A stretch of 64,000 nt of DNA from Roseibacillus sp. (GCA_965242925.1 CBDEUM010000014.1:224001-288000), one strand, 5' to 3'; counted from the first letter of the stretch, positions 5,910-40,531 are shown. Made by a program: numbers and translations. Notes: generated from the letters alone by a model not told the origin.

Positions 5910-6023
5910 GATGCCGAGTGCTTAGAGAGAAGGGAACGCAAGCACAAGCTTCACCCCACAGACCCGCGTTCCGGGGATTGCCTCCAGCGCCGTTCCTGCC
6001 TAAAGAAAGCCCTGCCTGTCGAG

Positions 6024-8822: not shown

Positions 8823-10276
8823 ACGTCCACAATCAGGAGCGCATCCAACATTGGCTCGCCGAGCGCACGCGCCGTCACTTCTTCCGCGACTGCGGAGTGG
8901 GACTGGGGACCATTGCCTTCAATTCCTTGCTCGGACAATTGCAGGCCCGTCACCTCCCGGCCATCGATCCCGCCCGGCCCATGGGCGCCCGCATTCCGCC
9001 CCTCCCGGCCAGGGCCAAAAACGTCATCTTCCTGCACATGGCTGGTGCACCCAGTCAACTCGAACTCTTCGAGGACAAACCAAAGCTGCGCGAGCTCCAC
9101 GGCAAGACGCCTCCCAAGAGCCTGATGGAGGGCAAGCGCTTCGCCTTCCTCAAGGGCAACGAAACGCTCCTCGGCAACTCGCGCCCCTTCGCGCGCTACG
9201 GACAGTGCGGGATGTCCCTGAGCGATCAGATCCCGCACCACCGTAAGATCGTGGACGAGGTGGTCTGGCTCCGTGGAATGACCACCGATGTCTTTAATCA
9301 CGGCCCGGCCAAGCTCTTCATGAATACCGGATTCCAGGCTCCGGGACGTCCGAGCATGGGCGCCTGGATCACCTACGGCCTGGGCAGCGAGAACGACAGT
9401 CTCCCCGGCTTCGTGGTTCTGCAGAGCGGTCCGCGAGGGCCACGCGCGGGCAATTCGCTCTGGGCCAGCGGGTTCCTCCCCACCTCCTTCCAGGGCGTCC
9501 CCTTCCGCGGCAAGGGCGACCCCATCCTCCACCTGCGCAGCCCGGAAGGAATGACCCGGAAGCGCGAGCGCAAGTTCTACGACGCGGTGGGAGCCCTCAA
9601 TCGCGCCCGCCTGGAGGAAACCGGCGACCCCGAAATTCTCACCCGCCTCAACGCCTACGAGATGGCCTATCGCATGCAGAGCAGCGCACCCGAGCTCATG
9701 GATCTGAACAAGGAGTCGCCGCACACTCTCGACCTCTACGGCGTGAAACCGGGCCAGCCATCCTATGCCTCCAATTGCCTCCTCGCCCGCCGCCTGGTGG
9801 AGCGCGGGGTGCGCTTCGTGCAGCTCTATCATACGAATTGGGATAGCCACGGCGGCCCAGGCGAGACCCTCACGGATGACTTTGAGAAAGTCTGCAAGTC
9901 AGCTGACCAGGCCAGCGCCGCCCTCGTCCTCGATCTCAAGGAACGCGGCATGCTCGACGACACCCTCGTCATCTGGGGCGGTGAATTCGGTCGCACCCCG
10001 ATGGGCGAAAATCGCAAGACCACCGGACGCGATCACCACATCGACGCCTTCACCATGTGGATGGCCGGAGCCGGACTGAAGAAGGGCTACATCCACGGCG
10101 AAACCGACGAGCTCGGCTTCGGCGTGGTAAACGGAAAAGTCCACGTCCACGACCTCCACGCCACTCTCTTGCATCTGCTAGGCTTCGATCACGAACAGCT
10201 CACCTACCGCTTCCAGGGGAGAGACTTCCGACTCACCGACGTACACGGCCGCGTGGTGAAGGAGATTCTGGCATAG
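8819..10276 (+). CDS. DUF1501 family protein with Tat signal
   Basis: TRRHFF twin-arginine motif; AKNVIFLHMAGAPSQLELF, CLLARRLVERGVRFVQ, WGGEFGRTP, RLTDVHG. ATGA overlap with the upstream DUF1553 gene. Confidence 0.92.
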   Translation: MNVHNQERIQHWLAERTRRHFFRDCGVGLGTIAFNSLLGQLQARHLPAIDPARPMGARIPPLPARAKNVIFLHMAGAPSQLELFEDKPKLRELHGKTPPKSLMEGKRFAFLKGNETLLGNSRPFARYGQCGMSLSDQIPHHRKIVDEVVWLRGMTTDVFNHGPAKLFMNTGFQAPGRPSMGAWITYGLGSENDSLPGFVVLQSGPRGPRAGNSLWASGFLPTSFQGVPFRGKGDPILHLRSPEGMTRKRERKFYDAVGALNRARLEETGDPEILTRLNAYEMAYRMQSSAPELMDLNKESPHTLDLYGVKPGQPSYASNCLLARRLVERGVRFVQLYHTNWDSHGGPGETLTDDFEKVCKSADQASAALVLDLKERGMLDDTLVIWGGEFGRTPMGENRKTTGRDHHIDAFTMWMAGAGLKKGYIHGETDELGFGVVNGKVHVHDLHATLLHLLGFDHEQLTYRFQGRDFRLTDVHGRVVKEILA

Positions 10277-10707
10277 ATCTCCCGGACAGGAGGATTGTCA
10301 CGCCCGAAGTCCCTTCCTGATGGTGATGTTTCAAGACGAGAGCTCCAGGGATATTCCAAGATCCTCTTTAATGCAGTGAGCTTTCTTCGAAGAAACAAGG
10401 CGGTTGGAAAAGGGGCACTTCCTCCTCCGCTAGAATTCCTCACTCCACGATAATCCGCCCAGGTGATCAGGAAGATGGTGGAGATCAAGGAGTGCCTGCG
10501 GAAAAGCTACGTGAGAGAACACGAGGGAAGAGACCCGTTTGCCTCTCCCCTGATGCATCCGGCCGGAATCCGGTTTCTGGATGACGAGAAGGAGCGCCCG
10601 ATCCTCTCTCCCTTCTTCCCCGATGAAGAAGGATCCGCAGCGCAGGCCCCCTCCTGAAATCGAGGATCCCCTTGCTTCGACTGTCAAGACCCCTGAAGAT
10701 CCGCCTC

Positions 10708-22123: not shown

Positions 22124-22456
22124 GAGGAATCCAACCGCGGATCGTGGCCCATGGCGATCCTGGAAGCAGTTCTCCACAAGCTGCCTTAGGGCACGTCCGC
22201 GGTCGGCCATGCATCCGGTTTTCGGGCAATCGATCCACTAACTTTGAATATTAATTCTCCTTGAATACTTGATCCGCAGGTTTTTGACGGCGCAGACCTG
22301 GCAATTGTCATTGCCCAGATGAAGATCTCCCGCAAACGACGCGCCCTGCTGGCAGATCCTCTCACCGACAATAGCATCTGTGAGCCCATCCTACCTTTGC
22401 TCCATCATTTCATAATGAGCATGACAGCTCCTGATCAAATGATCAGGGTGTCCCGG

Positions 22457-25400
22457 ATGGTGAGAAGAAGGCAGGGCAGATTCGCAACAGGCGGGGCATT
22501 CCTCCTCGCATTGCTGACGATGCTCCCCGGCCAGATCCAGGCCCAGGGCAAGGATCCTGCCCTTGATCTCTACTACCTCGCCTCCGGTGCCTACAACCGG
22601 AAGCTCTACCCTGCCGCCATCGGCGGATTCCAGGAGTTCCTGCAGAAGAACGCCAAGCACACCAAGGCGGACCAGGCCCGGCAGGGCCTGGCCCTCAGCT
22701 TCTACGCGCAGAAGCAATACGCCCAGGCCATTCCTCACCTCGGCGCCCTCCTGGCCAAGCCCAATCTTCCCAAGGAGATCAGTCGCGACCGCATCATCCT
22801 GATGCAGGGACAGTGTCTCCTGCGCAGCGGCCAGAAGGACCAGGCCCGCGCCCACTTCATCAAGGAGGAAGGCAAGTTGCAAAATCCCGCCTACAAGGCC
22901 TCCGCCCTCGCGGCCATCTGTGACATCTGCTTCGGCAAGCACGAATGGGATCAGGTCAACACCTGGACCGCCAGGCTGGTGCAGGCCAAGGGCACCCCCG
23001 ACCAGATGGCCCGTGGTCTCTATCAGCAGGGCTTCGCGAATTACCAGCTGAAGAAATACGAGAAGGCCGCCGGGATCCTCGAAAAGGTCACCCCCCTCAC
23101 CGCCAACGCCATCTGGAAGACACGGTCCTCCTACCTCCTCGGTGAGTGCTACACCATCGTCAAGAACCACGAGAAGGCCGAGCCCGCATTCGTGGCAGCC
23201 CTCCCGGGCCTGGAGGGCCCCGACAAGACCGAGTGCCACTACCGCCTGGGAGTGACCCGGTTCATCCTGGAGAAGTGGGCTCCGGCCGCGGAAGAGTTCG
23301 AGACCTTCCTGAAAGAGGAGCCCGGAACCCGGGACAAGGAACAGAAGAAGGAGAACCCCTACATCAAGGAATCGCAGCTCTACATCGGGAGATGCCTGCT
23401 GGAGCAGGGAGAGTTCAAAAAGGCCCAGAACCGGCTCTCGGGGTTGATCAACGTGGACAGCCCGTTGGGAGCCAAGGCCAACCTGTGGTTCGCCCGCGTT
23501 TTTTCGCGTCCGGAGAAGCCAAATTACGATCAGGCCGCCGCCTCCCTGGAGCCTGCGGTCAAGAAATACCAGAAATTCGCTCCCTTCAACGACGACCTGC
23601 GCTTCGATTATGCCAACGCCCTGATGAGCCGCAACAACCCCGACTGGAAGACCGCGGCCCAGGCGCTGGGACAGATCAACGGTGGGGTCTTCGGCCAGTT
23701 CGCGGAGGTTCTCGCCCAGCGGGCCACCTGCTACCACAAGCTCAAGGACTACAACACGAGCCTGAACCTGGCCAACGAGTACCTGGCCAAGTTCAAGGAC
23801 CATGAGATGGCTGGGGACACCCGTTTCCTGCGGGCCGAGAACATGTTCCTGCTCAACCAGCTCGATAACGCCATCAAGGCCTACCAGGAGTACCTGGCCG
23901 CAGACAAGGAGCACCCCCACACTCTTGCCGCAGCCTTCCGGGTGGCCCAGATCCACCACCACCAGGATCGCTGGGATCAATCCCTGGCCGCCGCCACACC
24001 ACTCCTGGCCAAGAAGCCGGAGGGTCCCCTCTTCGCCCAGCTCGCCTTCCTGGTGGGCAACTGCCACTTCCGCAAGGAGCAGTGGAAGGAATGCCTGGAA
24101 CCGCTGGAAGCCTTCGTGGCCACCCGGGTGCAGAAGAAAGGCAACAACCAGCAGGTCACTGCCGACCCCAATGTGGACACCGCGCTCATCCAGCTCGCGG
24201 TCGCCTACGACCGCACCGAGGATTCCATCAAGGCCCTTGAGCACCTCGAGACCCTCACCCGCTTCTACCCCAAGCCCACTCCGCACCTGCCCCTGGCTCT
24301 CGCCGAGCAGGGACGGCTTGCCTACCAGCAGGAGAACCTTTCCCTGGCAAGGCAGTCCCTCGAGCGCTTCCTCAACGAGGACAAACAGAACAAGGAACCC
24401 TTCAAGAGCGGGGCCCCGCCCCAACGGTTCCGGGTGAATTACTTCCTCGGCTGGATCAATGCCACCGAGAAAAAGCATGAGCCGGCTGCGCTGCACTTTG
24501 GTGCGGTTTCCAGGCACCACCAGCACGACCTGGCCCCGGATGCCGCCCTGCAGGAGGGCCTCGCCTACGTCTACCTCGAAAAGTTCGACCAGGCCGCGAC
24601 CCTGTTTCCGCAGATCCTCCAACGCTACCCGAAACACGAGAAGCTCCAGCGCGTCACCTACTACGCCGGACTCTCGCTCGCCCGACTGGAGAAGTGGGGA
24701 CCGGCCGCCGGCCACCTGCGCAAGGTGGCCGATACCTGGCCGGATTCCGAGTTCGCAGACCAGGCGCTCTACGAGTGGGCGTGGTGCGAACGCAAGCAGA
24801 AGCGGGAGACCGAGGCGGTCAAACTCTACGAACGCTTCCTGGCCAAATACAAGCAGAGCGCCCTCGTGATCAAGGTGCAGAGCGAGCTTGCCGGACTCAA
24901 CCTCAAGAGCGGCGCCCAGGACATGGTCATCGAGCGCCTCACCAAGGCGCTTGGGGAGGTCAAGGACGACGCCCTCAAGGAAGACCTGCGCTACCAACTG
25001 GCCAGCGCCCATTTTAGCAAGGGCGAATACGAAAAATCCGCCGGCATGTTTGAGCAACTCCTCAACGACTACCCCAAGTCCAAGCTCAAGGCCTCCATGT
25101 GCTTCCAGGCCGGGGAATCACGCTACAAACTGAAGGAGACCGTGACCGCCCGCGGACACTTCGCCGAGGGCATGAAGGCGAGCGGTCTCCAACCCGCCAT
25201 CGCCGAGTCCATGATGATGCGCCTCGCTGAAATGCAGTCCGCCACCGCCGATCACACCGGTGCTCGCAAAACCTATCAGGACTTCATCGGACGTTTTCCG
25301 GAAAGCAAATGGAGGCGCAACGCCCAGTTCGGACTGGCCTGGTCCCTTGAGAATTCGGACAAGCCCAACGACGCCATCCACCACTATGCCCCTCTCCTCG

Positions 25401-25699
25401 ACCCGAAGACCCCCATTGACCTCTGGACTGTGAGGGCCCGCTTCCAGACCGGAGAGTGCTACTTCAACATGCAGAAGTACGAACAGGCCGTGAAGGAGTT
25501 CCTCAACGTCGAAATTCACTACAAGAAGCATCCCGGCTGGCAGGCCAAGGGGATCCTCGAAATCGGCCGGGTTCTCCTCGCCCAGAACAAACGCGAGGAC
25601 GCCAAGCAGCGCTTCAAGGATGTCATCATCCGCTACCCGAAGCAAAAGGCGGCCATCGTCGCGCGCCAGTACCTCGATCAACTCCGCACCAACGGATAA
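22457..25699 (+). CDS. Large secreted tetratricopeptide-repeat protein (CpoB/YbgF/BamD-like TPR type)
   Basis: Signal peptide (FLLALLTMLPGQIQAQ); many A..Y..G..Y.......A...F......YP TPR units. Start uncertain (22414-22457). Confidence 0.85.
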   Translation: MVRRRQGRFATGGAFLLALLTMLPGQIQAQGKDPALDLYYLASGAYNRKLYPAAIGGFQEFLQKNAKHTKADQARQGLALSFYAQKQYAQAIPHLGALLAKPNLPKEISRDRIILMQGQCLLRSGQKDQARAHFIKEEGKLQNPAYKASALAAICDICFGKHEWDQVNTWTARLVQAKGTPDQMARGLYQQGFANYQLKKYEKAAGILEKVTPLTANAIWKTRSSYLLGECYTIVKNHEKAEPAFVAALPGLEGPDKTECHYRLGVTRFILEKWAPAAEEFETFLKEEPGTRDKEQKKENPYIKESQLYIGRCLLEQGEFKKAQNRLSGLINVDSPLGAKANLWFARVFSRPEKPNYDQAAASLEPAVKKYQKFAPFNDDLRFDYANALMSRNNPDWKTAAQALGQINGGVFGQFAEVLAQRATCYHKLKDYNTSLNLANEYLAKFKDHEMAGDTRFLRAENMFLLNQLDNAIKAYQEYLAADKEHPHTLAAAFRVAQIHHHQDRWDQSLAAATPLLAKKPEGPLFAQLAFLVGNCHFRKEQWKECLEPLEAFVATRVQKKGNNQQVTADPNVDTALIQLAVAYDRTEDSIKALEHLETLTRFYPKPTPHLPLALAEQGRLAYQQENLSLARQSLERFLNEDKQNKEPFKSGAPPQRFRVNYFLGWINATEKKHEPAALHFGAVSRHHQHDLAPDAALQEGLAYVYLEKFDQAATLFPQILQRYPKHEKLQRVTYYAGLSLARLEKWGPAAGHLRKVADTWPDSEFADQALYEWAWCERKQKRETEAVKLYERFLAKYKQSALVIKVQSELAGLNLKSGAQDMVIERLTKALGEVKDDALKEDLRYQLASAHFSKGEYEKSAGMFEQLLNDYPKSKLKASMCFQAGESRYKLKETVTARGHFAEGMKASGLQPAIAESMMMRLAEMQSATADHTGARKTYQDFIGRFPESKWRRNAQFGLAWSLENSDKPNDAIHHYAPLLDPKTPIDLWTVRARFQTGECYFNMQKYEQAVKEFLNVEIHYKKHPGWQAKGILEIGRVLLAQNKREDAKQRFKDVIIRYPKQKAAIVARQYLDQLRTNG

Positions 25700-25744: not shown

Positions 25745-26485
25745 ATGACGAACTACACAACAACCCAACCCTGGAAAGCCGTCCTCGGCATGACCTCCCT
25801 CTTCCTCCTCGCTTTCACCACCACCCTGCTGGCAGCGGATGCCGGAGCCGATGCGGGCGTCGAGAAGGAAACAATGTTTTCCCTCATCAAGAAAGGGGGG
25901 CCGATCATGATCCCGCTGGGCCTCGCCTCCATCATCGCCCTCGCAATTGCCATCGAACGCTTCATCTCCCTGCGCCGGGACAGGATCCTACCGGACGGAT
26001 TCCTCAATGGGCTGGGCCAGGCCTGGGACTCCGATTCTTCCGGTCAGACCGCCGAGCAGTATTGCGAGCAGAACTCCGGCGCCGCCGGGCACGTCTTCAA
26101 GGCCGGCATCCAGTGGCGCGACTCGGGCTACCAGGCGGTGGCCAAGGCCATCGAAGACGCTGGCATCCGGGAGGCCGACAAGATGAAGCGCAGCCTGCGC
26201 GGGCTTTCAATCATCGCGGCAGTCTGCCCGTTGCTCGGACTTCTCGGCACGGTTTACGGGATGATCGATGCCTTCCAGCGGACCTCCTCCAGTGGGGGTG
26301 CGGCCAAGACCGCCGATCTCGCAACCGGGATTTACGAGGCCCTGGTGACCACCGCGGCCGGCCTCACCATCGCCATTCCCGCCATGCTGCTCTACCAGTT
26401 TCTCCAATCCAAGGTGGACGGCCTGATCGATCATATCGACGAGGTGGGCACCGAATTCATCGTCAAACATGCCCGCAGCCACTGA
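25745..26485 (+). CDS. exbB: MotA/TolQ/ExbB proton channel family protein
   Basis: CPLLGLLGTVYGMIDAF and LATGIYEALVTTAAGLTIAIPA signature helices. Confidence 0.93.
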   Translation: MTNYTTTQPWKAVLGMTSLFLLAFTTTLLAADAGADAGVEKETMFSLIKKGGPIMIPLGLASIIALAIAIERFISLRRDRILPDGFLNGLGQAWDSDSSGQTAEQYCEQNSGAAGHVFKAGIQWRDSGYQAVAKAIEDAGIREADKMKRSLRGLSIIAAVCPLLGLLGTVYGMIDAFQRTSSSGGAAKTADLATGIYEALVTTAAGLTIAIPAMLLYQFLQSKVDGLIDHIDEVGTEFIVKHARSH

Positions 26486-26531: not shown

Positions 26532-26948
26532 ATGAGAATTCGCAGCCGGGACAACGACCAGGGCGAGATAATCAACATCTCGAGCATGATCGACGTCATG
26601 TTCATCCTCATCATCTTCTTCCTGGTCACCACCACCTTCAAGGAGGAGGAAGTCGATCACCTCATCAAGTTGCCGGTCGAATCGCGTAACCAGTCGCTCA
26701 CCCAGACCGCGGGCAACCTGATCAAGGTCAATATCCGGGACAGCGGAGCCTACGTGGTGATGGGACAGCAGGTGACCGAAGAAGACCTCACCAAGTGGAT
26801 GAACGAGGAGGTCGAAAAGAAACCCGAACTCAAGGTCCTGATCCGTTGCGACAAGGAATCCAAGCACCTCTATCTCGCCAACGTGATGTCGATCTGCCGC
26901 CACGTGGGAGTTCCTGAGGCCAGCATCGCCGTCCGCACCGAGAAGTAG
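26532..26948 (+). CDS. exbD: ExbD/TolR family protein
   Basis: INISSMIDVMFILIIFFLVTT transmembrane helix with conserved Asp; periplasmic VLIRCDKES. Confidence 0.93.
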   Translation: MRIRSRDNDQGEIINISSMIDVMFILIIFFLVTTTFKEEEVDHLIKLPVESRNQSLTQTAGNLIKVNIRDSGAYVVMGQQVTEEDLTKWMNEEVEKKPELKVLIRCDKESKHLYLANVMSICRHVGVPEASIAVRTEK

Positions 26949-26960
26949 GCTGACAGAATT

Positions 26961-29648
26961 ATGAACCAGCCCATGCCCATCCCCATCGAGGACGATCGCG
27001 ACCCCGATCGCAGGATCCTCGGGGTGACACGCAGGCAGCGCTTCCGTGCCTATTTCTGGATCGGGGTTATCCTGATGGTGGGGTTCCTCATCTGGGCTCT
27101 TTTCTACCTCCGCCCCGACCGCTGGTACACCTACACCGACCAGGTCGCCTTCGAGCAGGTCGCCCGCGACGTGGAACCCGGTTACGTCCTCTGGGAAAAG
27201 GCCGAACCGGTCGGTAGCGGATTGGCCCCTGGCGACGACATCGCCACGCCGGTCGTCTCCTCCAACGGGGCCCGCATGATCTACAGTGCCGGGGAGAAGG
27301 ATGGAAACGCCAATCTCTTCCTGCGGGAGTGGGACGGCACCGACTGGAAGGAGCCGCGTCCCATGCGGGCGCTCAACAGCTCCTTCCACGAACTCGCTCC
27401 CTCCCTCAGTGGCAATGGGGAGCTCCTCTACTTTACCAGTGACCGCCCCGGAGGGCAGGGCGGCTTCGACATCTGGGTCTCGAAGTGGGACGGCTCCGAA
27501 TATGCATGGCCGCTCCCCCTCACACCCCGGGTTAACACGCCCTTCGACGAAATTGACCCGGACTTCGCTCCCGACAACCTCAAACTCTACTTTGCGTCCA
27601 ACCGCCCCCGCCGCGCGACTGACACCTCCGAGAAAGTGGCCGCCATCCTGGAGAACGTCGAGGACCGCAAGGGCAACTTTGACCTCTACTCTGCTGACAC
27701 AGCCGGCGGTATCCCCCCGACAGTAAAAGGTCTCCTGAAACTCCAGGCTGAACAGAAAGCGCTCGCTGATTCACTGCAGGGATCCGAAAGCCCCCCCGGG
27801 GAAGAAACCGCGACCCAGGCGCAGACAAGTGCCGCTCAGGCAGCCCAGTTTCTCAGGAAGGCCGCCCAGCGACTTGGGGACGACGAACTACCGGATCCAA
27901 TCGGGCAGTCTAAAGAGGCGCTGAGTGCAGCGATCCATGAGATGAAAAAGGTCGAAGAGGCCCTGAGTGAGGAGCCAGACATGGCCCGGGAGCAGCTCAT
28001 CATTCGGAAACAAGCCAACGTCATGAACACGGGCGCCCCGGTTGGCATCATCGTGGAGCGTCAGTTGAGCATGCTCTATTCCCTGCGTGAAAGCGCCCTC
28101 GCCGATACGGAGATCATGGCCAAGCTTGGCGGCACTCCCCAGACCGAGGCCGCGGTGGACAAGGGACTCGCCTACCTCGCTAGCACCCAGGAGGAAGATG
28201 GGCGTTGGAACATCGCCAAGTCCGGGGGACAGGGGAACCACGACCAGGCCGCCACCGCCTTCGCCCTCCTCGCCTTCTACGGCCGGGGAGAAGTGCACGA
28301 CGAGGAGTGCAAGTATCAGGACACCGTAAAACGGGGAATCGAGTGGCTGCACGGGCAAAGGAATGTGGCCACCGGAGACTTCCGTGGCACCAGGCCCCAG
28401 GGCAATGCCATGTATGACCACGGCATTGCCTCCCTCGCCGTGGTGGAGGCCTTTGGAGTCACCAAGGACACCACCCACCGTGCCGCGGCCCAGTCCGCAA
28501 TCGATTTCATTGTGGCAACCCAGCACGAAGAAGGCGGCTGGCGCTACACGCCCAATCAGAAGGGAGACCTCTCGGTCACCGGCTGGTACATCATGGCTCT
28601 CGCCAGCGCCAAGATGTCGGGCCTCGAGGTCCCGGACAAGACCATGGAAGGTGCCGCAAAGTTCCTCGCCAGCGTGAGTCACGGCAAGAACAAGGGAGCT
28701 TATGGCTACACCGGCCCGGGAGGGGGAACCCCGGCCATGAACGCGGCCGGCTTCTTCTGTTCCCAGTTGCTGGGTCATTCCTCCAATACATCCAAGGCCT
28801 ATGAATCCTCCGTCATCGTCGACCGCCAGGCCTTCCAGTTGAACGACATCTACTACGCCTACTACGGCACCGTGGCATCCTACCAGCACCAGGGCCCGGC
28901 CTGGCGCAAGTGGATGGGAGCAATGCAGCCGGCCTTCGTGAAGGCGCAGAACTCTGACGGCTCCTGGAACACGGGGGGAGGCCACGGCGGGGCCATGGGC
29001 AAGGTCATCGTGACCGCCCTGGTGACTCTCTGCCTGGAAGCCCACTACCGTTACACTCCCCTCTACGGCCTGGGCTGGGAACCCGACCCCGAGGGGCCCA
29101 CCGGAAACAGCAGGGATCTCGCCGACCTCGCCGAGACACCCCTCTTCCGCCACGCCAAGTTTCTCAAGGATTTCAGCTCCCCCGCCAACGACACCGGACC
29201 GGTCCTCACCGACCATGGGGACTTCCTCTATTTCGCCTCCGAGCGTGATGGGGGAGAGGGAGGGGCCGACATCTGGCGTTCGCGGATCAAACGCACCCGG
29301 GTCAACGAGCCCGTTCAACCGAAGAACCTCGGTCCCGAGATCAACGGGGAAGATGATGAGACCAACCCCGCGGTCCGCAATGCCGGCTTCCACCTCCTCT
29401 TCAACTCCGACCGCGAAAACAACAGGAATGCCCTCTACAGCGCCCGCAGCAAGCGTGTGGTGCGTCGCTTCGATCTCACCAAGATGCCCGACCTCAACTG
29501 GATCATGGGTAACATGCTCTGGATCCTTGGTCTCCTCGCCTCATTGATTGGTTTTGTCTGGCTCACCAGGCGGGCCCTGACCGCTGGCAAGGAAGCCCAA
29601 GCCTCATCCGCCCTGCCCGATGACGCCCCCCCCGATCCCGCTGCCTAA
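26961..29648 (+). CDS. Membrane-anchored PD40 (TolB-like) propeller + prenyltransferase/squalene-cyclase-like QW-repeat barrel protein
   Basis: N- and C-terminal TM helices; PD40 repeats (LYFTSDRPGGQGGFDIW, LYFASERDGGEGGADIW); QW motifs QEEDGRW, QHEEGGWRY, QNSDGSW. Confidence 0.8.
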   Translation: MNQPMPIPIEDDRDPDRRILGVTRRQRFRAYFWIGVILMVGFLIWALFYLRPDRWYTYTDQVAFEQVARDVEPGYVLWEKAEPVGSGLAPGDDIATPVVSSNGARMIYSAGEKDGNANLFLREWDGTDWKEPRPMRALNSSFHELAPSLSGNGELLYFTSDRPGGQGGFDIWVSKWDGSEYAWPLPLTPRVNTPFDEIDPDFAPDNLKLYFASNRPRRATDTSEKVAAILENVEDRKGNFDLYSADTAGGIPPTVKGLLKLQAEQKALADSLQGSESPPGEETATQAQTSAAQAAQFLRKAAQRLGDDELPDPIGQSKEALSAAIHEMKKVEEALSEEPDMAREQLIIRKQANVMNTGAPVGIIVERQLSMLYSLRESALADTEIMAKLGGTPQTEAAVDKGLAYLASTQEEDGRWNIAKSGGQGNHDQAATAFALLAFYGRGEVHDEECKYQDTVKRGIEWLHGQRNVATGDFRGTRPQGNAMYDHGIASLAVVEAFGVTKDTTHRAAAQSAIDFIVATQHEEGGWRYTPNQKGDLSVTGWYIMALASAKMSGLEVPDKTMEGAAKFLASVSHGKNKGAYGYTGPGGGTPAMNAAGFFCSQLLGHSSNTSKAYESSVIVDRQAFQLNDIYYAYYGTVASYQHQGPAWRKWMGAMQPAFVKAQNSDGSWNTGGGHGGAMGKVIVTALVTLCLEAHYRYTPLYGLGWEPDPEGPTGNSRDLADLAETPLFRHAKFLKDFSSPANDTGPVLTDHGDFLYFASERDGGEGGADIWRSRIKRTRVNEPVQPKNLGPEINGEDDETNPAVRNAGFHLLFNSDRENNRNALYSARSKRVVRRFDLTKMPDLNWIMGNMLWILGLLASLIGFVWLTRRALTAGKEAQASSALPDDAPPDPAA

Positions 29649-29669: not shown

Positions 29670-32600
29670 ATGCCCGAACCGGAACAACAAAAACCCGAAC
29701 AACCCCCGGCCAACCACGCGCCCTCGCCGGCGCGCTGGCTGCTGCCGCTTGCCGCCCTCGCGGTAATGATCGGGATCGGCCTCCTCATCCAAGGCAAGCT
29801 CCGCAACGAGATCTGGTCCTACTTCACCGACGACCAGGGAACCCGCGTGGTAGTGCAGGATGGCAGGGAACGCTACATCCTCTGGCAGGATCCCCGGCAG
29901 AGCCTCTTCAAGGAAGAGGGCTCCACCGAAGAGCCCGATCCCGTCAATCAAGCCTCCGGTCGACTGGAAGCGGCCTTCTCCCCGAATGGCACCTCCATGG
30001 TCCTGGTCCGAACGGAAGCCGAAAACACCCGGGCCGACCTCTACTGGTCCACCTGGGATGGACGGCTCTGGACCCGCCCCACCGCTCTCAGCGCCCTCAA
30101 CACGGAGGCCGACGAGCGGGGACCGGCCTTCTCCCGCGACGGCAGGTATCTCTACTTCAGCTCCGATCGCGAGGGTGGCCAGGGAGGCACCGACATCTAC
30201 GTGGCCCGCTGGAACGGTCAGGAATGGACCGGCGTGGGAGCGCTGGGGACCACCGTCAATTCGCCCGCCCACGAAACCGGCCCCGCTCCCACCACCGACG
30301 GGAACCGCCTCTACTTCTCGTCCAATCGCGACGGCACCGGAAACGACATTTTCGTCTCACAACGTCTTGAGGAAACGCCTTCGGACCCCGGAGAGACTGC
30401 GAACGAAGCCGCCCCCGAACCAGTGGAGCCAAAAAATCCTGCCAATTCCGGGGAAGCAGTGGTCGAACTCCCGCCTCTCCCGAAATTTCGCAATGGGGAG
30501 ATCGTCGACCACCTCAATTCCTCCGCCGAGGACCTGCAGGCCGCCCTGACCCGGCGCGGCAACCATGTCTTCCTGGCCTCCGATCGCGATCGCAACACAG
30601 AGTCCGGTTTCGGCGTCTACTTCAGCCGCGTCATCGACGGGGAAGCGCTTCCTCCCGAGCGCGTCGACCTCTACCTCGACAGGGGTGATGTCACCGACCC
30701 CGCGGTACGCATGGAGGGCTTCGATCTCCTCTTCAGCACCAACTCCGGGACCAGCGAGGAGGAAGAAGGATTCAAGCTCTACCGTTCCACCACCCGTGAG
30801 GTCATTGGCTACACCAACCTCGATCGCTGGGAGTCCTTCAAGGAACTCATGAAGAATATCGGCTGGTGGATCCTCCTCGCTCTCCTCGCCCTCATTGCCC
30901 TCCTTTATCTCATGGAGGCCTGGCAGGACATCACCAACCTCTTCCACAAGTGCCTGGCCGGGTCCGCCGTCGTCCACCTCATCATTCTCTTTCTCCTCAT
31001 GCTCTGGCTCATCGCCAGGGAAGTGGGCGGCAAGGAGCCACAATCGCCCGTGGCCACCGTCAGCATCGAAGCCCTCATGGAGGAGGAACTGGCCCTCGAG
31101 AGCGAACCGGAACAGGCCCAGATCGCGGAAACCAAGAATCTTGTGATGACCGAGAAGTTCGACAGCGACTTCAAGATCCCCGTTTTCAAACCGCGTGAGA
31201 ATACCAAGGTCGTCCCCATCGTCACCAAGACTTCCAATGCCTCCCTCGTGCCCAGCGTGCGGCCCTCCAAGCTCAATGAATCGGAGTCGGAACAGGAACA
31301 ACCACAGCCCACCAAGGAACTCACCGTCCTGACCTCCCTGCCCGAGACCTTCCTCCCCGAACCGGAAGACCCCACCCTTGAGGAGGAGCAGGTCACCGAC
31401 CAGCAACTGGCCGAGAAACCGGCCGACCCCGCCGAGACCGAGTTCAAGCCCACCGAGTCCCTGGAGCAGGTGGAGCCCAAGCAGGCCGAGGAACACGAGG
31501 TGGTCGACACCGCCATCGAAAATGAGGCCGAGTCCAAGGATGTCTCGCAAACCGACTCCGCCCCCCAGGCCGCCGATACCGGGGGCGACATCGTCAATCC
31601 CCACCGCGGCCTGGAGGCCCTCGGCGCACCGCCCGAACTGGACGGGGCCGGAGACGCCATTACCAATCTGCTCAACCTCCCGGGGGACGCCCAGGCCAAT
31701 GACCCTCTCCTCCCCGGCAAACTGGCCACCCCGACCAATGATCTCGACACCCGGGCCATCACCAAGCTCATCAAGAAACAACGCGGACGGCCCTCACTGG
31801 ACACCATCGAGCAGCTTGGGGGATCGGACGCCACCGAGCGTGCCATCGGGGCGGCCCTTGAATGGCTCGCCCGCAACCAGGAGGGGGACGGCCGCTGGGA
31901 CATGCGCAAACACGGTGCCAACGGCGCCTACGATACCGCCGGGGCCGGACTGGCCCTGCTGTGTTTCTACGGCTGGGGCGAGGTTCACAACAAGGGTGGC
32001 AAATACCAGGCCACCGTCCAACGCGCCCTCGACTGGCTCATCAAGCAGCAGAAGGAAAACGGCGACCTGCGGGGCGGGGGCCGGATGTATTGCCACGGCA
32101 TCGCCGCCATCGCCCTCTGCGAGGCCTACGGTGCCACCAAGGATCCCAAGCTCAGGGAAGCGGCCCAGAAGGCCATCTCCCTGATCCTCGCCTCCCAGAG
32201 CCCCAGCAAGGGGGGTTGGCGCTACAACCCAGTCAACCAGAACAGTCAACCCAGTGAGGACTCCGACCTCTCGGTCACCGCCTGGCAGTACATGGCCCTG
32301 CACAGTGCCCGCCTGGCCGACCTCAGTGTCCCGGATGCGGCCTTCACCCGGGCCCAGAATTACCTGTCCTCGGTCTCCTCCGGAAAACACGGGGGGCTCT
32401 ACGCCTACACCGGCGGTGGGCCCAACCCCGCCATGACTGCCAGCGGCATGTTCTGCCGTCAGCTCGATCTCGTCCCCCCCACCGATCCCAGCATGCCGGA
32501 GAGCGCCGAATACCTGGGACGCCACAAGCTCCAGCAGAATCCCAAATACTACTACATGTACTACGCCACCCTCGCCCTCTACCAGCACCAGGGGCCAGTT

Positions 32601-32828
32601 TGGAAGGAGTGGAACGAGAAGCTGAAGGAGGTCCTGCCCCTCATCCAGAAGAAGGTCGGCCCCGAACGGGGAAGCTGGGATCCGGGCGGCCAGCACGCGC
32701 GGGCAGGCGGGCGGGTGGTCTCCACCACCCTCTCGGTCCTCAGCCTTGAGGTCTACTACCGTCTCCTCCCGATGTACGGGTTCCGTGGAGCGGACGACTT
32801 GCCCGCCGCCAAGAAAAAGGGCGAGTAG
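29670..32828 (+). CDS. Membrane protein: PD40 propeller, TM hairpin with SxxxH, acidic Pro-rich linker, C-terminal QW-repeat barrel
   Basis: LYFSSDREGGQGGTDIY repeats; GSAVVHLIILFLL; E/P/T-rich spacer; QEGDGRW, GGWRY, SDLSVTAW, LEVYYRLLPMY. Confidence 0.8.
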   Translation: MPEPEQQKPEQPPANHAPSPARWLLPLAALAVMIGIGLLIQGKLRNEIWSYFTDDQGTRVVVQDGRERYILWQDPRQSLFKEEGSTEEPDPVNQASGRLEAAFSPNGTSMVLVRTEAENTRADLYWSTWDGRLWTRPTALSALNTEADERGPAFSRDGRYLYFSSDREGGQGGTDIYVARWNGQEWTGVGALGTTVNSPAHETGPAPTTDGNRLYFSSNRDGTGNDIFVSQRLEETPSDPGETANEAAPEPVEPKNPANSGEAVVELPPLPKFRNGEIVDHLNSSAEDLQAALTRRGNHVFLASDRDRNTESGFGVYFSRVIDGEALPPERVDLYLDRGDVTDPAVRMEGFDLLFSTNSGTSEEEEGFKLYRSTTREVIGYTNLDRWESFKELMKNIGWWILLALLALIALLYLMEAWQDITNLFHKCLAGSAVVHLIILFLLMLWLIAREVGGKEPQSPVATVSIEALMEEELALESEPEQAQIAETKNLVMTEKFDSDFKIPVFKPRENTKVVPIVTKTSNASLVPSVRPSKLNESESEQEQPQPTKELTVLTSLPETFLPEPEDPTLEEEQVTDQQLAEKPADPAETEFKPTESLEQVEPKQAEEHEVVDTAIENEAESKDVSQTDSAPQAADTGGDIVNPHRGLEALGAPPELDGAGDAITNLLNLPGDAQANDPLLPGKLATPTNDLDTRAITKLIKKQRGRPSLDTIEQLGGSDATERAIGAALEWLARNQEGDGRWDMRKHGANGAYDTAGAGLALLCFYGWGEVHNKGGKYQATVQRALDWLIKQQKENGDLRGGGRMYCHGIAAIALCEAYGATKDPKLREAAQKAISLILASQSPSKGGWRYNPVNQNSQPSEDSDLSVTAWQYMALHSARLADLSVPDAAFTRAQNYLSSVSSGKHGGLYAYTGGGPNPAMTASGMFCRQLDLVPPTDPSMPESAEYLGRHKLQQNPKYYYMYYATLALYQHQGPVWKEWNEKLKEVLPLIQKKVGPERGSWDPGGQHARAGGRVVSTTLSVLSLEVYYRLLPMYGFRGADDLPAAKKKGE

Positions 32829-34963: not shown

Positions 34964-35257
34964 CTATTTCTCGGTTCTGATTGCGATGTTCGCCTTCGGA
35001 ACCCCGACGTAACGGCAGATGGACATCACGTTGGCAAGGTAGAGGTGCTTGGACTCCTTGTCACAGCGGATCAGGACCTTGAGATCGGGGTTTTTCTCGA
35101 ACCTCTCGTTGATCCACTTGGTGAGACCTTCCTCGGTCACCTGCTGGCCCATCACGACCATGGCACCGTTGTGACGAATGTTGACCTTGATCAGGTTGCC
35201 AGCGGTCTGGGTGAGGGACTGGGGCCTTGAATCAGTCGGCAGTTTGATGAGGTGATC
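34964..35257 (-). repeat. Diverged inverted copy of the exbD 3' segment (26655..26948)
   Basis: 294-nt colinear match from DHLIKLP to RTEK-stop, without indels. Confidence 0.9.
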
Positions 35258-35872
35258 CGCGCTCGTATCCGTATTCTTCACCCGCCCGGATGCCGTGATA
35301 AATATTTTTTCGGGCCCCACCCCGTATTCAATTGTGAACCACACCACTTCACTGAATCGCCACCGCAGTGCTTTGTTCCCGTTATTTTTCCCATAGGCGG
35401 CTCCCTTGTCCCGGGTAAACCGGTTAGCCTTATAAAAAGGGGGATTAAATAAATCCGGGTGGGAATTCTGCCAATGTTGGGCTGTGGCACCAAAGGGCTT
35501 GAGGGTGTCCTCCCAGAACTTTCGGTAGGCAGCCAGGGAATCGGCATTGGGCTCTACAAGGTGGGCATCGTGGTCAGGATGCTCTTTGACAACCTCATCC
35601 ATTACAAGCTGGGGAGCCCGGGGCCAGATGTCACCGTTTGCCTCCAGGTAACGCTGCATCGCAACGTGCAGTGCCATCAGGTCCTCCGTGGCTTCCTCGA
35701 TAGCGCCTTTTTCCTGCCAGAGCAGGGGCAGGGTGGCAAAGGATTGCGTATTTTCCTTTGCTTCAGGGCCGTCCGGGTTCCGGCTCTCTTCATTGGCGGG
35801 CTTTTCACAGGCCACCAGGAGCAAGGCCAGAGAGGCTGTAATGAAGCAAGCCAAGGAACCTCTTACATTCAT
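34964..35872 (-). CDS. Chimeric lipoprotein with C-terminal ExbD periplasmic domain
   Basis: Lipobox LLLVAC; last 97 aa match the ExbD at 26532 at 81/97 positions by manual alignment. Confidence 0.75.
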   Translation of the reverse strand: MNVRGSLACFITASLALLLVACEKPANEESRNPDGPEAKENTQSFATLPLLWQEKGAIEEATEDLMALHVAMQRYLEANGDIWPRAPQLVMDEVVKEHPDHDAHLVEPNADSLAAYRKFWEDTLKPFGATAQHWQNSHPDLFNPPFYKANRFTRDKGAAYGKNNGNKALRWRFSEVVWFTIEYGVGPEKIFITASGRVKNTDTSADHLIKLPTDSRPQSLTQTAGNLIKVNIRHNGAMVVMGQQVTEEGLTKWINERFEKNPDLKVLIRCDKESKHLYLANVMSICRYVGVPKANIAIRTEK

Positions 35873-35956: not shown

Positions 35957-38900
35957 TCATGGTTGTCTCTTCGGCTCCACTCCAAAATGATGCAACACGT
36001 TCCTGACCAGCGCGCTCAGGGCCTTGTCATGATACATGGCCCAGGCCGTCGCGATTGAACCGGTGTGAAAAACCTGTCCCCCTTCAGGCCGCTCCCAATA
36101 GATGATCTCCGCAATGGTCTGCTCATCTCCCGCCCTTGGCCGGTGCGCTTCGGCATTGAAATCAAGGATGTTCCGCTTGTCCTGGCTGCTGGCGATGGTG
36201 ACGATCCCCTTCGGTTCTGCCAGCCCTTTCAGGGCCGGATTCCTGGTCGCCCTCAGCAACGTCGAGAGGCGCACGTCGTACTCGTGACCGACTGCACCGA
36301 TGCTCTTGTTGACGAACCCGAAGGGATCTCCCTCTTGCAGATCGATCTTGTGGGGTTTGTTGAAAAGGAAATGATCCGGCAGATCAGCGTGATAGGGCTT
36401 GAAGTTCAAGCCACCCCACCCGGCACAGGTCAACCCGACCAGCTTCCATGCGGGGTAGCCGCAGAAACGCATCAGGCTCCCGCGCTTGAAATCGTGGCTA
36501 TGGTAGAGTTCGCCCACCTTGGCCCGGGCCCGGCCCCCGATACTTTTCCCGAACTTACGACACTCCATCACCTCGCCACTGTCGTCGAAGCTCACCCGCC
36601 AGAACATGGTGTTTCCTGACATCACCACCGCCGCCCCACCGGCCTTCAGATAGTTATCAAGACCGTCGTAGGCGCGGCTTGACCAGTATTCGCTGTGTCC
36701 GTTGATGCAGACCGCCTTGTAGCCATTCAATATTTCCGGGTGACGGTCCAGGTCGTGGTCGGTGATGACATCGTAGTGGTAGCCGTGGTCGTCCAGCCAG
36801 AGGTGCAGGAAGCGCTCGCCACGGAGCAGATGGCTGTAGCCTCCGCCGATATAGGTCTTGTTGGGCCCTCCCGCCGGCCAGGGCACTTTCATGCCGATCT
36901 TATAGGTCGGCTGGCCGTTGTGGTGATCACTGTAGCAGCTGTAGCTGGGCGCTCCCGGGTGGCTGTTGCCCAATCCACCCGTCCCCATGTTGACCAGGCC
37001 CGGCCCATGATTCACCGGAAAGGGAGTCGAATTGTAGGCCAGCCAGGTATTTGACGAAACGAGAACGAGCAGGGGCGCCTTCGGCCTGGCCTCGGGGCGC
37101 CGCACGATGAAGGAGGCATGGTAGCGCATCGGTTTGCCGTTCAACTGGAAATCGAAGCGTCCGGCGTAGACGCCCGACTTGGCATGGGCAGGAACACGGA
37201 ATCGATGGCTTACCTTCCAACGGGCATTGTATATTTCGTCAGTGGCCAAGCGGAGCCCGTGACCTCGTCTGGCATCCTTGGTCGGATCGTATGCCGTATC
37301 GTGTCGGCCGATCGCCGCCGCATCAAAGGTCGGGCCGCCGATCATCCAGGTTCCCCGGTTGATGATCCTGCCATTGCGTCCAAAATCACTCGTATCGGCT
37401 ACTTCTACACCCCGTTCCTCGGTGAACGGCCAGCAGGCCAGCAGGCGGTCATCCCTGGGAACGCTCAAGCCGCGACCGGAAAAACGTTTCCTGATTTGAT
37501 CCTCACTTAGAGCCCGGTCATAGATAGCACACATCGCGATGTCGCCGTTATAGAAGTTCACCGCCGTTCCCTTTTGACCATAGGCCCCGATGCGCAGGGC
37601 GGTCTCGCCAGGTCTTACTGTTCCGGCGAAGGGGAACTCGGCAACAAGTTTGCCGTCCACATAAACCCGTTTTTTCTTCCCATCCCAGCAACCAACGAGG
37701 TGGTGCCATTGCTGGGCCTTGATCAGCCCGGGCTCGGTCTGGTGAAAGGCGGCCTGATCGTAAGCACCTCCTGCCCCGGTGCCAAAGACGATCCTCCCCT
37801 CGCTAAGAAACAACCCAACTCCACAACGTTCCGGATAATCGTGCTGGGTGATCAAGCCCTGCCAGCCGGTCAACTTGAATGGGCGGATCCAGCATTCCAG
37901 GGTCAGCTGCGACAAGCGTCTCTCGACAGGTAGAGCTTTGGCCACATGCACGTAGGACCCCGGATGGATCGCCTGGGCCTGCGGTTGTTCGACCCGAAAG
38001 GTTTGCAGCACCGGATCCTTGTCCCGGCTCTCGGGATCCTGCCCCAGTTGCACGACGCTCAGGTCGTAAGGGACGCTGCTGCTGACTCGAAACTCGATTT
38101 CCTCACCCGCCGCAATGCTCTTCTGCGCGTAGGCGTGCAGACCTGGCAAATCCACCGGCTGATGCGGGGGTATTTCCTGTTCCTTGCCTGCATTCCCCTC
38201 CGTGGAAGCAAAGGCGGCAGGCAACTTGGCCGCTTTCAAATAAGCCACCAGGTCGGCAATTTCTCCAGGTTTCAAGAGGCCGTCAAAAACCCGGGGCATT
38301 AACGAAATGTTCGAATACTTTGCCGCTTTGATGTCCCGAATCGGCACGGAGTGTTCCAATCCGGGCGCCGGCGCGAGGACCATCTTATCCACGGTATCCC
38401 TCAGGATCAGGCCCCCTGTTTCTCCTTTCCTGGTCTGCACCTTCACCAGTTCGTAGTAACGGGCAATCGATGAACTGGGATAGACGATCGCCTCCAGAAG
38501 GTCCTGTTCACTGCGAATGGACCCGATTCCGGTCAGGTCAGGACCGAACTTCACTCCCTGATCCCCCATGACGTGACAGGTGATGCACAAGGATTTGGAA
38601 GCATTGTGAAATAGCTTCTCTCCTCGATCCGGATCTCCCTCCGGCAGCAGGGCCGACAGCTCCTTGAGACGCGTCTGTTGAAGAGCCGCCGCTTCCGGAT
38701 CGGACTCGACGGCATCCGCCAGCTGGATCCTCGGCATGGCCTGGGGCGCGGGATCCGCTTCGCCAAGCTCGTGCATGAGACGAACCTGCCTTCCCAGCGG
38801 ATCATCCTCGGAAAGGCTCCGGGTGTCTCCGATCTCGTAGAGTGCATAGATGATGGCGTGCCTCAAAAACGCATCCATCTTCTTCGAGCTGGCCGCCACC

Positions 38901-40468: not shown

Positions 40469-40531
40469 GCTGACAATTTTGCGCAAATAAGGAGGATGTT
40501 ATAAATTCAATGTCCTGCGGGATCGACCGGC

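Follow-up and report, generated by a model that had tools for sequence, protein, structure and literature searches.

A candidate force transducer with a Ser-x3-His membrane helix and a QW-repeat toroid head in an ExbB-ExbD cassette of Roseibacillus sp.

Introduction

The closest described counterparts of the protein reported here are TolA and TonB. TolA (E. coli b0739) carries a Ser-x3-His motif near the cytoplasmic side of a single, N-terminal, in-to-out membrane helix, followed by a short conserved stretch some 31-32 residues past the Ser, a long, Ala/Lys-rich and helical spacer which spans the periplasm, and the domain III head; its gene follows tolQ/tolR-type genes, and the system also includes a CpoB-like TPR protein and the TolB propeller. 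TonB likewise has a single N-terminal Ser-x3-His helix, together with a Pro-rich spacer, a partnership with ExbB-ExbD and a C-terminal TonB_C domain. To our knowledge, TonB_C and TolA domain III were for decades the only transducer heads known.

Williams-Jones et al. (2025, Mol Biol Evol, PMC12204202) have proposed a further group, the vWA-headed SHLS transducers, which in PVC bacteria are encoded downstream of TPR-tolQ-tolR genes. Their concept is identical to that of the protein reported here, in that an SHLS helix is followed by a motor box, a disordered linker and finally a head that is not of TonB type. The terms PD40, prenyltransferase, toroid and squalene are absent from the main text of that paper. 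A literature search for ExbB, ExbD, TolQ or TolR in combination with terpene-cyclase-like or PD40 domains found no account of the present family.

Results and Discussion

The window analysed is a stretch of 64,000 nucleotides from Roseibacillus sp. (GCA_965242925.1, CBDEUM010000014.1:224001-288000), in which an open reading frame at 29670-32828 was called that encodes the candidate transducer, a protein of 1052 amino acids (this and all features below lie on the plus strand unless stated otherwise). Three hydrophobic segments were found in the protein by a Kyte-Doolittle scan (aa 20-45, 392-421 and 424-455), helices were placed at aa 20-48, 385-417 and 424-453 in an AlphaFold2 model of aa 1-505, and the protein is a three-helix inner-membrane protein. 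TM1 (aa 20-45; 29727..29804) is assigned N-in from hydropathy, the model helix and the charge of its N-terminal flank, and TM2 (aa 392-421; 30843..30932), supported by hydropathy and the AlphaFold2 model, runs out-to-in and forms a hairpin with TM3 via a short loop. TM3 (aa 428-448, CLAGSAVVHLIILFLLMLWLI; 30951..31013), assigned from hydropathy and the homologue alignments, runs in-to-out. The sequence-only reading had located a Ser/His pair in the third helix, and translation of the reading frame together with the Kyte-Doolittle scan bore this out, Ser432 starting at nt 30963 and His436 ending at nt 30977. A conserved His-Lys-Cys (aa 426-428), strongly conserved here and without counterpart in the TolA sequence, directly precedes the helix.

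The N-terminal part of the protein is a PD40 beta-propeller of TolB-like fold, predicted to be periplasmic (aa ~90-376; 29937..30797; PF07676, E 2.2e-22). The first 18 Foldseek matches listed for it are TolB chains without exception (best E 4.1e-12), although the TM-scores are only 0.32-0.40 over ~290 columns. PD40 repeats are thus common to this domain and TolB, while the propeller here is anchored in the membrane at both ends and is without the TolB N-domain. Neither a TonB_C nor a TolA domain was found in the 1052-aa protein with Pfam and NCBIfam, and Pfam gave no vWA domain in it.

Ser432 and His436 are invariant columns both in A1, a MAFFT alignment of 16 sequences, and in A4, one of 36 sequences reaching down to 33% identity, and S-x3-H is kept in 120/120 homologues listed, at 43-99% identity. 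In a further 94 representatives of 50%-identity clusters, 91 of which cover the motif, His is present in 91/91 and Ser in 85/91 (Ala instead of Ser in 6), while the positions neighbouring His436 vary freely; the invariance of the pair that had been anticipated for homologues was therefore observed in both alignments and, for the His, in every representative covering it. The motif reads SAVVH here and SAVLH in TolA. The other half of the SHLS motif (Leu at +11 and Ser at +15, counted from the first Ser) is not kept, +11 being Met/Leu/Phe and +15 Leu/Gln/Val; in TonB too, these Leu and Ser residues are less conserved, according to Celia et al. (2025, PMC12215075).

Orientation was assessed from the family-mean net charge of the helix flanks, which is +2.4 ahead of TM1 and -1.4 behind it, +0.7 in the loop joining TM2 and TM3, and -2.2 beyond TM3. 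In addition, one paralogue (P0128) bears an extension of ~400 aa before TM1 which is rich in Lys/Arg and in repeats and lacks a signal peptide. This charge bias and the extension without a signal peptide together place the linker and the toroid in the periplasm, and helix 3 fits an N-in, C-out orientation. The topology is a prediction from sequence, and it agrees with the earlier proposal that helix 3 is N-in/C-out and that linker and barrel are not cytoplasmic.

Helix 3 is followed by an acidic, Pro/Thr-rich, predicted periplasmic linker (aa 449 to ~705; 31014..31784), recognised by its composition and charge. Residues 449-720 (272 aa) comprise 38 Glu, 27 Pro, 26 Leu, 24 Ala, 23 Thr and 18 Asp, and net charge summed over seven 40-residue windows from aa 441 to 720 is about -32. 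The linker proper is ~255 aa long and poorly conserved, and in the 65 of 122 relatives in which the head start could be located by pattern it spans 253-938 aa, a variability that suits a spacer. The sequence-only description of a Glu/Pro/Thr-rich spacer of ~240 aa leading into a barrel was borne out, the stretch being acidic, moderately rich in Pro and Thr, and followed by a toroid. The linker differs in composition from the Ala/Lys-rich helical spacer of TolA, and its length in relatives from the ~100 aa given for vWA SHLS transducers in PMC12204202.

Near the start of the linker lies a conserved island, a candidate motor box identified by family conservation (aa 461-480, VATVSIEALMEEELALESEP; 31050..31109). 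Conservation is 0.69 at aa 466-480 as against 0.17-0.40 across most of the linker, and columns L84, E87, L89 and A90 (A1 numbering) are invariant. The box lies 32 residues from the Ser here and 31 in E. coli TolA, and the family consensus SIDAL can be set beside SSIDAV of TolA. Celia et al. (2025, PMC12215075) describe a beta-strand D-box after the E. coli TonB helix (45-ISVTMVT-51), to which VATVSIE (aa 461-467) may be comparable. The AlphaFold2 model has pLDDT <50 across the island, and a complex prediction pairing the post-helix segment with two copies of the ExbD periplasmic domain scored 0.02, an uncontrolled value that weighs neither way on binding.

Sequence homology to TolA or TonB does not reach statistical significance. 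TM3 gave a BLASTP local match to aa 18-31 of E. coli TolA (E 0.004, in a single comparison), and hhalign against the TolA N-terminus gave E 0.0072 at a probability of 5.4% with the box placed five residues off. A profile of TM2, TM3 and the box searched against all PDB sequences returned noise only (GPCR and FliQ helices, best E 0.7); neither TonB nor TolA appeared up to an E-value of 10. Judged by sequence, the 1052-aa protein falls outside the TonB and TolA families proper; it differs from TolA in having three helices and its own N-terminal propeller, from both in that its candidate docking helix comes third and belongs to a hairpin, and from TonB in lacking a TonB_C domain, the TonB_C protein of this genome being a different gene.

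The gene lies in a cassette with the order CpoB-like TPR protein, ExbB, ExbD, permuted paralogue, transducer. The first gene (22319..25699) encodes a large protein with CpoB/YbgF-like repeats, which matches many TPR Pfam families and scores 219.2 bits against NCBIfam TIGR02795 (tol_pal_ybgF; cut-off 90.1) over 7 stretches. It is followed by an ExbB/TolQ-type motor subunit of 246 aa (25745..26485; PF01618, E 2.8e-30), whose best NCBIfam match is TolQ at 92.8 bits, under the cut-off of 221, and whose PDB matches are TolQ and ExbB (E ~5e-11), and by an ExbD/TolR-type subunit of 138 aa (26532..26948; PF02472, E 7.6e-26), with an NCBIfam TolR score of 53.1, under the cut-off of 127.3. Ser62 in TM1 of this ExbB aligns with Ser34 of E. 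coli ExbB, a TonB contact according to Celia et al. (2025, PMC12215075), and is kept in 38/38 cassette orthologues; membrane Asp21 of ExbD is invariant in 26 aligned orthologues. From these two residues the motor looks functional. The position of E. coli ExbB Trp38, also a TonB contact, is Leu here and Leu/Val/Ile in the cassette orthologues. As in the Tol system, the transducer gene follows tolQ/tolR-type genes and the cassette combines a CpoB-like TPR protein with a TolB-like propeller, but no Pal gene is adjacent to it. It also contains one tolR-like gene where the vWA SHLS transducers have a pair.

Synteny was scored at 44 loci where the sequence upstream of the transducer ORF extends for 4.5 kb or more. 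ExbB-ExbD lies directly upstream of the transducer in 37/44 loci, and a CpoB-like TPR gene lies upstream in 44/44. The [SA]-x3-H pattern itself served in part to recognise the ORFs counted, and the counts are not independent events, since the loci are related to one another. The arrangements were TPR-ExbB-ExbD-paralogue (33), TPR-ExbB-ExbD (4), TPR only (5) and TPR with paralogue (2), so that 7/44 loci are without an adjacent motor. Synteny with ExbB-ExbD persists to ~33% identity, the full cassette is present at nine genome loci of the same family, and the family spans at least 100 clusters at 50% identity in Verrucomicrobia and Planctomycetes.

We infer, with a probability of roughly 0.6, that this protein transmits force into the periplasm from the ExbB-ExbD motor in the way of TolA or TonB. 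The same role had been proposed from the sequence, and it is supported by the invariant S-x3-H, the predicted topology, the ExbB-ExbD synteny, the local match to the TolA helix, the island at TolA spacing, the parts lacking in the paralogue, the genome's count of ExbB-like and TonB_C genes and the exchange of the head for a vWA domain in two distant relatives (see below).

The cassette gene immediately upstream (26961..29648) encodes a permuted paralogue of 895 aa, in the order TM, propeller blades, toroid, propeller blades, TM. BLASTP aligned it with the 1052-aa protein in three blocks, aa 34-215 with 30-220, aa 384-704 with 711-1038 (43% identity) and aa 709-868 with 253-414. Its TM segments (aa 28-52 and 845-870) contain no His, which upholds the sequence-only statement that it has no SxxxH helix; the accompanying statement that it has no long spacer needs a small correction, as it has its own non-propeller spacer of ~165 aa before the toroid, which is not preceded by a membrane helix. 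By sequence comparison, the paralogue differs from the transducer by exactly the SxxxH helix, the island/box and the long linker.

The paralogue bears on an alternative in which the TM2-TM3 hairpin is a conserved anchor or assembly interface, for example with the paralogue itself, Ser and His serve helix packing, and the motor drives some other component or engages just the ExbD-binding island, helix 3 having no part in motor docking. TM2 is as conserved as TM3 (0.63-0.65 against 0.53-0.73), the hairpin is unlike the arrangement in TonB and TolA, the ExbB Trp contact is absent, and the His-Lys-Cys before the helix has no TolA equivalent; furthermore, paralogue and transducer are fused into one protein in locus L096, which points to a joint complex of the two. 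On the other hand, TM1 and TM2 recur in the paralogue whereas TM3 does not, which makes TM3 an addition to the anchor that the two have in common. The polar pair also agrees with that of TonB and TolA in spacing and in depth near the cytoplasmic side of the membrane, and the His is retained in every cluster representative covering it amid variable neighbours. We therefore consider a purely structural hairpin unlikely.

The C-terminal domain (aa ~706-1040; 31785..32789) is a QW-repeat alpha/alpha toroid according to a structure model, Foldseek and profile comparison. The model is an all-alpha toroid with pLDDT 84.8 and pTM 0.86, and the domain scores 27.6 bits against SQHop_cyclase_C (PF13243; cut-off 26.1). 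The best Foldseek matches are the single-domain squalene-hopene-cyclase-like structures 8pak/8paj (E 1.6e-7, TM ~0.6), with AprG, GH76 mannanases and MstE among the other top matches, and the head profile matches squalene-hopene cyclase at E 1.3e-11 through QW-type repeats. The fold and the repeats are thus common to class II terpene-cyclase-like and GH76 (alpha/alpha)6 toroids, from which the head differs in its low identity (9-20%), its predicted periplasmic location and its tethering to a motor-associated helix; it is a single toroid of ~335 aa as opposed to the two-domain build of squalene-hopene cyclase, and it is not the domain III fold of TolA. A vWA domain replaces the toroid at the end of 2 of 43 distant module-bearing proteins (P0175 and P0193), in a Pfam scan which covered 43 of the 94 further representatives. 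Compared with the vWA SHLS transducers, the present protein has the QW toroid head, a TolB-like propeller and a second helix before the candidate docking helix, and a permuted paralogue in its cassette.

A second alternative is that the protein serves mainly as an enzyme or binding protein of the periplasm, its toroid resembling terpene cyclases or glycoside hydrolases and hanging from a long tether; its membrane His, Cys and Ser would then form a sensing, metal or lipid-linked-substrate site, and the motor would be adjacent for another reason. The closest folds of the head are enzymes, head residues Asp177 and Ser179 are invariant within a D-S-D-T-S consensus string, and the conserved His-Lys-Cys plus the His could bind metal. 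The profile comparison gave no alignment between the head and the catalytic Asp-rich motif of squalene-hopene cyclase, however, and both the persistence of ExbB-ExbD synteny at low identity and the spacer-like variation of the linker speak against this explanation. The occurrence of a vWA head on the same membrane module further argues that the module, not toroid chemistry, is what is constant, and an enzymatic or binding role of this kind appears improbable.

A chance origin of the motif merits almost no credence: one helix carries S-x3-H at a base rate of 0.64% (14/2191 TM-like segments in ORFs of at least 200 aa in this genome), so that a single occurrence is unremarkable, but its invariance across the family, with flanking positions that vary, exceeds chance and refutes the notion of a meaningless feature of a hydrophobic helix.

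If the protein is the force transducer proposed, helix 3 would dock on the rim of the ExbB pentamer via Ser432 and His436, against the conserved ExbB Ser62, and the periplasmic ExbD dimer would catch the island. Proton flow through the motor would then pull the linker and toroid head, the latter perhaps holding an outer-envelope ligand, for which the head fold suggests a glycan or a polyprenyl-type lipid. The TolB-like propeller of the transducer, together with the paralogue and the TPR protein, may form a membrane-anchored platform.

In a broader and tentative interpretation, to which we give somewhat less than even odds, one chassis (TolB-like propeller, hairpin, SxxxH helix and motor box) would carry interchangeable QW-toroid or vWA heads in a PVC-specific envelope machine which a TolQR-like motor drives and to which the CpoB-like TPR protein and the permuted paralogue, as a static part, also belong. 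Such a machine might either stand in for Tol-Pal in bacteria without TolA and TolB or pull glycans inward during periplasmic polysaccharide uptake; uptake of a polysaccharide (fucoidan) into the periplasm is reported for marine Akkermansiaceae in PMC13174399. Were the transducer role correct, the Ser-x3-His helix and box would be a portable coupling device, and the paralogue lacking only the coupling parts would offer a natural with/without comparison of that device. One of the six ExbB-type motors would thereby gain a partner, in a genome whose single TonB_C protein is atypical, and the transducer role would point to how Verrucomicrobia and Planctomycetes energise an outer-envelope process.

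The genome encodes six ExbB-like genes and only one TonB_C protein. That protein is without an S-x3-H helix, and none of its scanned neighbours is a motor gene. A TolB N-domain was not found in the genome (89.9% complete), and four OmpA-domain genes are present, none of them in the cassette. In a precomputed table some homologues carry the Pfam accessions PF26549 and PF26550, which could bear on novelty, and an ESM Atlas look-up with aa 380-720 gave a best score of 0.77, under the useful range. Two further candidates were set aside. Insertion of helix 3 into the ExbB pore in the manner of ExbD was ruled out, as the helix has no Asp, and the Akkermansia mucin utilization loci were dropped as a lead, MUL1 synteny being absent from aquatic Akkermansiaceae and ExbB and TonB going unmentioned in the part of the source covered.

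Downstream of the transducer, on the minus strand, 34964..35872 encodes a lipoprotein-like protein of 302 aa, possibly accessory, whose N-terminus reads like a lipoprotein signal and whose C-terminal 98 aa are a copy of the cassette ExbD's periplasmic domain (83% identity to ExbD aa 41-138). An ExbD-like ORF of 248-320 aa was likewise observed on the opposite strand ~2 kb downstream in relatives (loci L004, L008, L015, L017, L020, L036, L038 and L039).

Ser-x3-His helix and its conservation

The 1052-aa protein (window 29670-32828, + strand) contains hydrophobic segments at residues 20-45, 392-421 and 424-455, and an AlphaFold2 model of residues 1-505 places helices 20-48, 385-417 and 424-453 around a beta-propeller. 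The third of these helices was found to carry the S-x3-H motif exactly where the sequence-only reading had located it (CLAGSAVVHLIILFLLMLWLI, residues 428-448; Ser432-His436, nt 30963-30977). The tripeptide His-Lys-Cys (residues 426-428; window 30945-30953) directly precedes helix 3 and has no counterpart in the TolA sequence read.

S-x3-H is present in 14 of 2191 TM-like segments of the window's genome (0.64%); a single occurrence proves nothing, while retention across the family, judged from the sequences compared, exceeds chance. Among 8000 candidates scored in a search of 5.8 billion proteins, 1647 matched at E ≤1e-5, and the motif was kept in the third helix of all 120 homologues among the matches listed (identity 43-99%). 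In MAFFT alignments of 16 sequences and of 36 sequences (to 33% identity), which were built without reference to the motif and so provide an independent check on the His, both S432 and H436 were invariant columns, so that the conservation expected by the sequence-only reading was borne out. A profile of the module (TM2, loop, TM3 and post-helix segment) was screened against 1.84 billion cluster representatives, giving at least 100 proteins at E ≤0.001; 94 of 100 were new, three of which were fragments missing the motif, and the remaining 91 had His in every case and Ser in 85, with Ala instead in six. Residues between and around the pair are freely variable. Per-position counts in 122 close and 89 distant relatives, anchored on [SA]-x3-H and thus partly fixing the His count by construction, revealed a Cys at Ser-4 (121/122 and 83/89, respectively) and a Trp at Ser+14 (108/122 and 71/89). 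The Leu-x3-Ser half of the SHLS motif was not kept in these sequences; this half is less conserved in TonB too (Celia et al. 2025, PMC12215075).

Topology, linker and candidate motor box

Mean net charge in 36 relatives was +2.4 before TM1, -1.4 after TM1, -0.4 before TM2, +0.7 in the TM2-TM3 loop and -2.2 after TM3. P0128 (1994 aa; contig C30, locus L035:7996-13980, + strand), a second transducer paralogue encoded by this genome, retains the S-x3-H helix and bears a Lys/Arg-rich extension of ~400 aa before TM1, with PPIAE-type repeats and no signal peptide. The flank charges and this extension point to a cytoplasmic N-terminus, which would make the propeller periplasmic and the short loop cytoplasmic, with helix 3 running in-to-out into a periplasmic linker and head; helix 3 is thus predicted to have the orientation of the TonB/TolA helix, as had been proposed. 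The acidic, Pro-rich spacer was likewise recovered, the 272 residues after the helix including 38 Glu, 27 Pro and 23 Thr with a strongly negative net charge.

The module profile retrieved no TonB or TolA at E ≤10 among 177,635 PDB sequences, and on these comparisons there is no statistically secure homology to either. Against the E. coli TolA N-terminus, BLASTP matched SAVVHLIILFLLMLW to SAVLHV-ILFAALIW (E 0.004 for a single comparison) and hhalign gave E 0.0072 with a probability of 5.4%. More telling for a likeness to TolA than either score is an island of conservation within a linker that otherwise varies (residues 466-480, conservation 0.69 versus 0.17-0.40 for most of the linker); in the 16-sequence alignment the island has the consensus I-S-I-D-A-L-A-Q-E-E-L-A-L-E-S. 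TolA has S-S-I-D-A-V-M-V at the matching place, and the Ser that precedes I-[DE]-A lies 32 residues beyond the motif Ser in the 1052-aa protein and 31 beyond it in TolA. The TonB counterpart is the D-box, 45-ISVTMVT-51, which adds a strand to the ExbD dimer on binding (Celia et al. 2025, PMC12215075); the name motor box is that of Williams-Jones et al. 2025 (PMC12204202), who report it in 93% of TolA sequences from a validated set of 113. The conservation of the island, together with its TolA-like spacing and residues, makes it a candidate motor box. It was modelled with low confidence in the single-chain AlphaFold2 prediction, as expected of a disordered stretch.

Propeller, toroid head and permuted paralogue

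The N-terminal domain, predicted to be periplasmic, consists of PD40 repeats, and its structural matches at ranks 1-18, as listed, were all TolB chains (best E 4.1e-12), with modest TM-scores of 0.32-0.40. The "QW barrel" described from the sequence proved to be correct: the head was modelled as an (alpha/alpha) toroid (pLDDT 84.8, pTM 0.86), and a profile search with it reached squalene-hopene cyclase through QW-type repeats (E 1.3e-11). Its closest folds are the single-domain squalene-hopene-cyclase-like structures 8pak and 8paj (E 1.6e-7, TM ~0.6), followed by AprG, GH76 mannanases and the cyclase MstE. Toroids of this fold are used for polyprenyl and glycan substrates.

The 895-aa protein (26961-29648, + strand) was identified as a permuted paralogue, in which TM1 plus blades (residues 34-215), toroid (384-704; 43% identity) and blades plus TM2 (709-868) correspond to residues 30-220, 711-1038 and 253-414 of the 1052-aa protein. 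It lacks helix 3 and the long linker, in agreement with the sequence-only reading, and the transducer's toroid sits behind three added parts, namely helix 3, island and linker. At one metagenome locus (L096:6680-10906, + strand) the two are fused, paralogue first, in an ORF of 1409 aa (stop to stop) with five hydrophobic segments, an arrangement consistent with a joint complex and with cytoplasmic placement of both termini.

Association with motor genes

The 1052-aa protein is the fifth member of a tight cassette of five + strand genes, where the 895-aa PD40-plus-toroid protein is preceded by a 1126-aa TPR protein with CpoB/YbgF-like repeats (22319-25699; TIGR02795, 219 bits against a cut-off of 90.1), ExbB/TolQ (25745-26485; PF01618, E 2.8e-30) and ExbD/TolR (26532-26948; PF02472, E 7.6e-26). 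The full cassette was present at nine genome loci from this bacterial family that had sufficient flanking sequence, and a metagenome pattern scan with the module gave 62 loci. Pooling yielded 83 transducer ORFs, 44 of them with at least 4.5 kb of upstream sequence; TPR-ExbB-ExbD-paralogue lay upstream at 33/44, TPR-ExbB-ExbD at four, TPR only at five and TPR plus paralogue at two, the loci being mutually related rather than independent events and the ORFs recognised partly by motif. Short transducers (757-789 aa) were among the four loci without the paralogue, and most of the five TPR-only loci encode long forms. ORFs first flagged as motif-less were inspected, and all transducer-type ones (L022, L026-L028, L091, L096) had S/A-x3-H; toroid proteins without the TM2-TM3 hairpin are of a different architecture. 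The window's genome holds both the full cassette and, on another contig, a motor-less pair, comprising P0128 (linker roughly 780 aa) and an upstream 1100-aa TPR gene without ExbB/ExbD; P0128 presumably borrows a motor encoded elsewhere.

The cassette motor looks functional from its sequence. The ExbD membrane Asp was invariant in 26 orthologues, and an ExbB TM1 Ser kept in 38/38 cassette ExbBs aligns with E. coli Ser34, an alignment that rests on whole-protein homology (-2.7 bits over the TM1 helix alone). Ser34 contacts TonB Ser16 and His20 in a cryo-EM structure (Celia et al. 2025, PMC12215075). The position of the second TonB contact, Trp38, is Leu, Val or Ile in cassette ExbBs, and this argues against full conservation of the interface. 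Another gene (34964-35872, - strand) encodes a 302-aa protein whose signal resembles that of a lipoprotein; the protein is 83% identical over its last 98 aa to the cassette ExbD periplasmic domain, lacks the ExbD membrane helix and may serve the ExbD dimer or motor box as a decoy or partner. Eight related loci have an ExbD-like ORF of 248-320 aa on the opposite strand, ~2 kb downstream.

Proposed mechanism and relationship to known transducers

The comparative evidence supports the proposal, made from the sequence, that the 1052-aa protein may be a force transducer. We put the probability at roughly 60% that it is TolA/TonB-like, in which case helix 3 would dock on ExbB, the island would engage ExbD and the toroid head would be pulled through the long acidic linker. 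The main rival, under which the conserved TM2-TM3 hairpin is an assembly element that does not dock on the motor, is considered unlikely. Membership of the TonB or TolA sequence family was rejected on account of the head and the lack of detectable homology.

The 1052-aa protein fits best into a class proposed only recently, that of SHLS transducers bearing alternative heads. Williams-Jones et al. 2025 (PMC12204202) describe transducers with an SHLS helix, motor box, disordered linker of ~100 residues and vWA head, so that a non-TonB head on such a helix is a published concept; their main text, supplements aside, has no mention of PD40, prenyltransferase, toroid or squalene, and no description of a toroid-headed family was found in the literature searched. 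A Pfam scan (E ≤1e-6) of 43 distant module-bearing representatives identified PD40 in 38 and SQHop-type toroids in seven, the head being unrecognised in many at this threshold. Two, P0175 (1121 aa) and P0193 (873 aa), have a vWA terminus in place of the toroid on the same membrane module, thereby connecting the two classes.

Transducers and motors in the genome

The closest public relatives of the window's genome (89.9% complete) are Roseibacillus MAGs (Akkermansiaceae, Verrucomicrobiota; protein identity up to 97%). It contains six ExbB-like and five ExbD-like ORFs and three TonB-dependent-receptor barrels. The sole TonB_C protein (283 aa; contig C13, locus L029:6435-7286, - strand) has neither His nor S-x3-H in its membrane helix, and no ExbB/ExbD gene was among the three neighbouring ORFs scanned. 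A single atypical TonB_C protein against six ExbB-like ORFs suggests that most motors of this genome lack a canonical transducer. The five further ExbB-like loci (L030-L034) are on contigs C18, C29, C30 and C42; among scanned neighbours, large TPR proteins were near four and a DUF4159 protein near one.

No TolB N-domain was found in this 89.9% complete genome. There are four OmpA-domain genes, none within the cassette; one domain is at window ~60059-60286 (- strand; contig C14:284059-284286) in an ORF of ~390 aa, and a further one lies just past the window's end. Planctomycete-type genes (PSCyt1, PSD1, DUF1501) are in the cassette's vicinity, and window 5412-10276, 10672-13554 and 35957-40486 together encode a PSCyt1/PSCyt2/PSD1 protein paired with a DUF1501 protein as well as two large DUF7133-cytochrome c proteins, of types typical of Planctomycetes and Verrucomicrobia.
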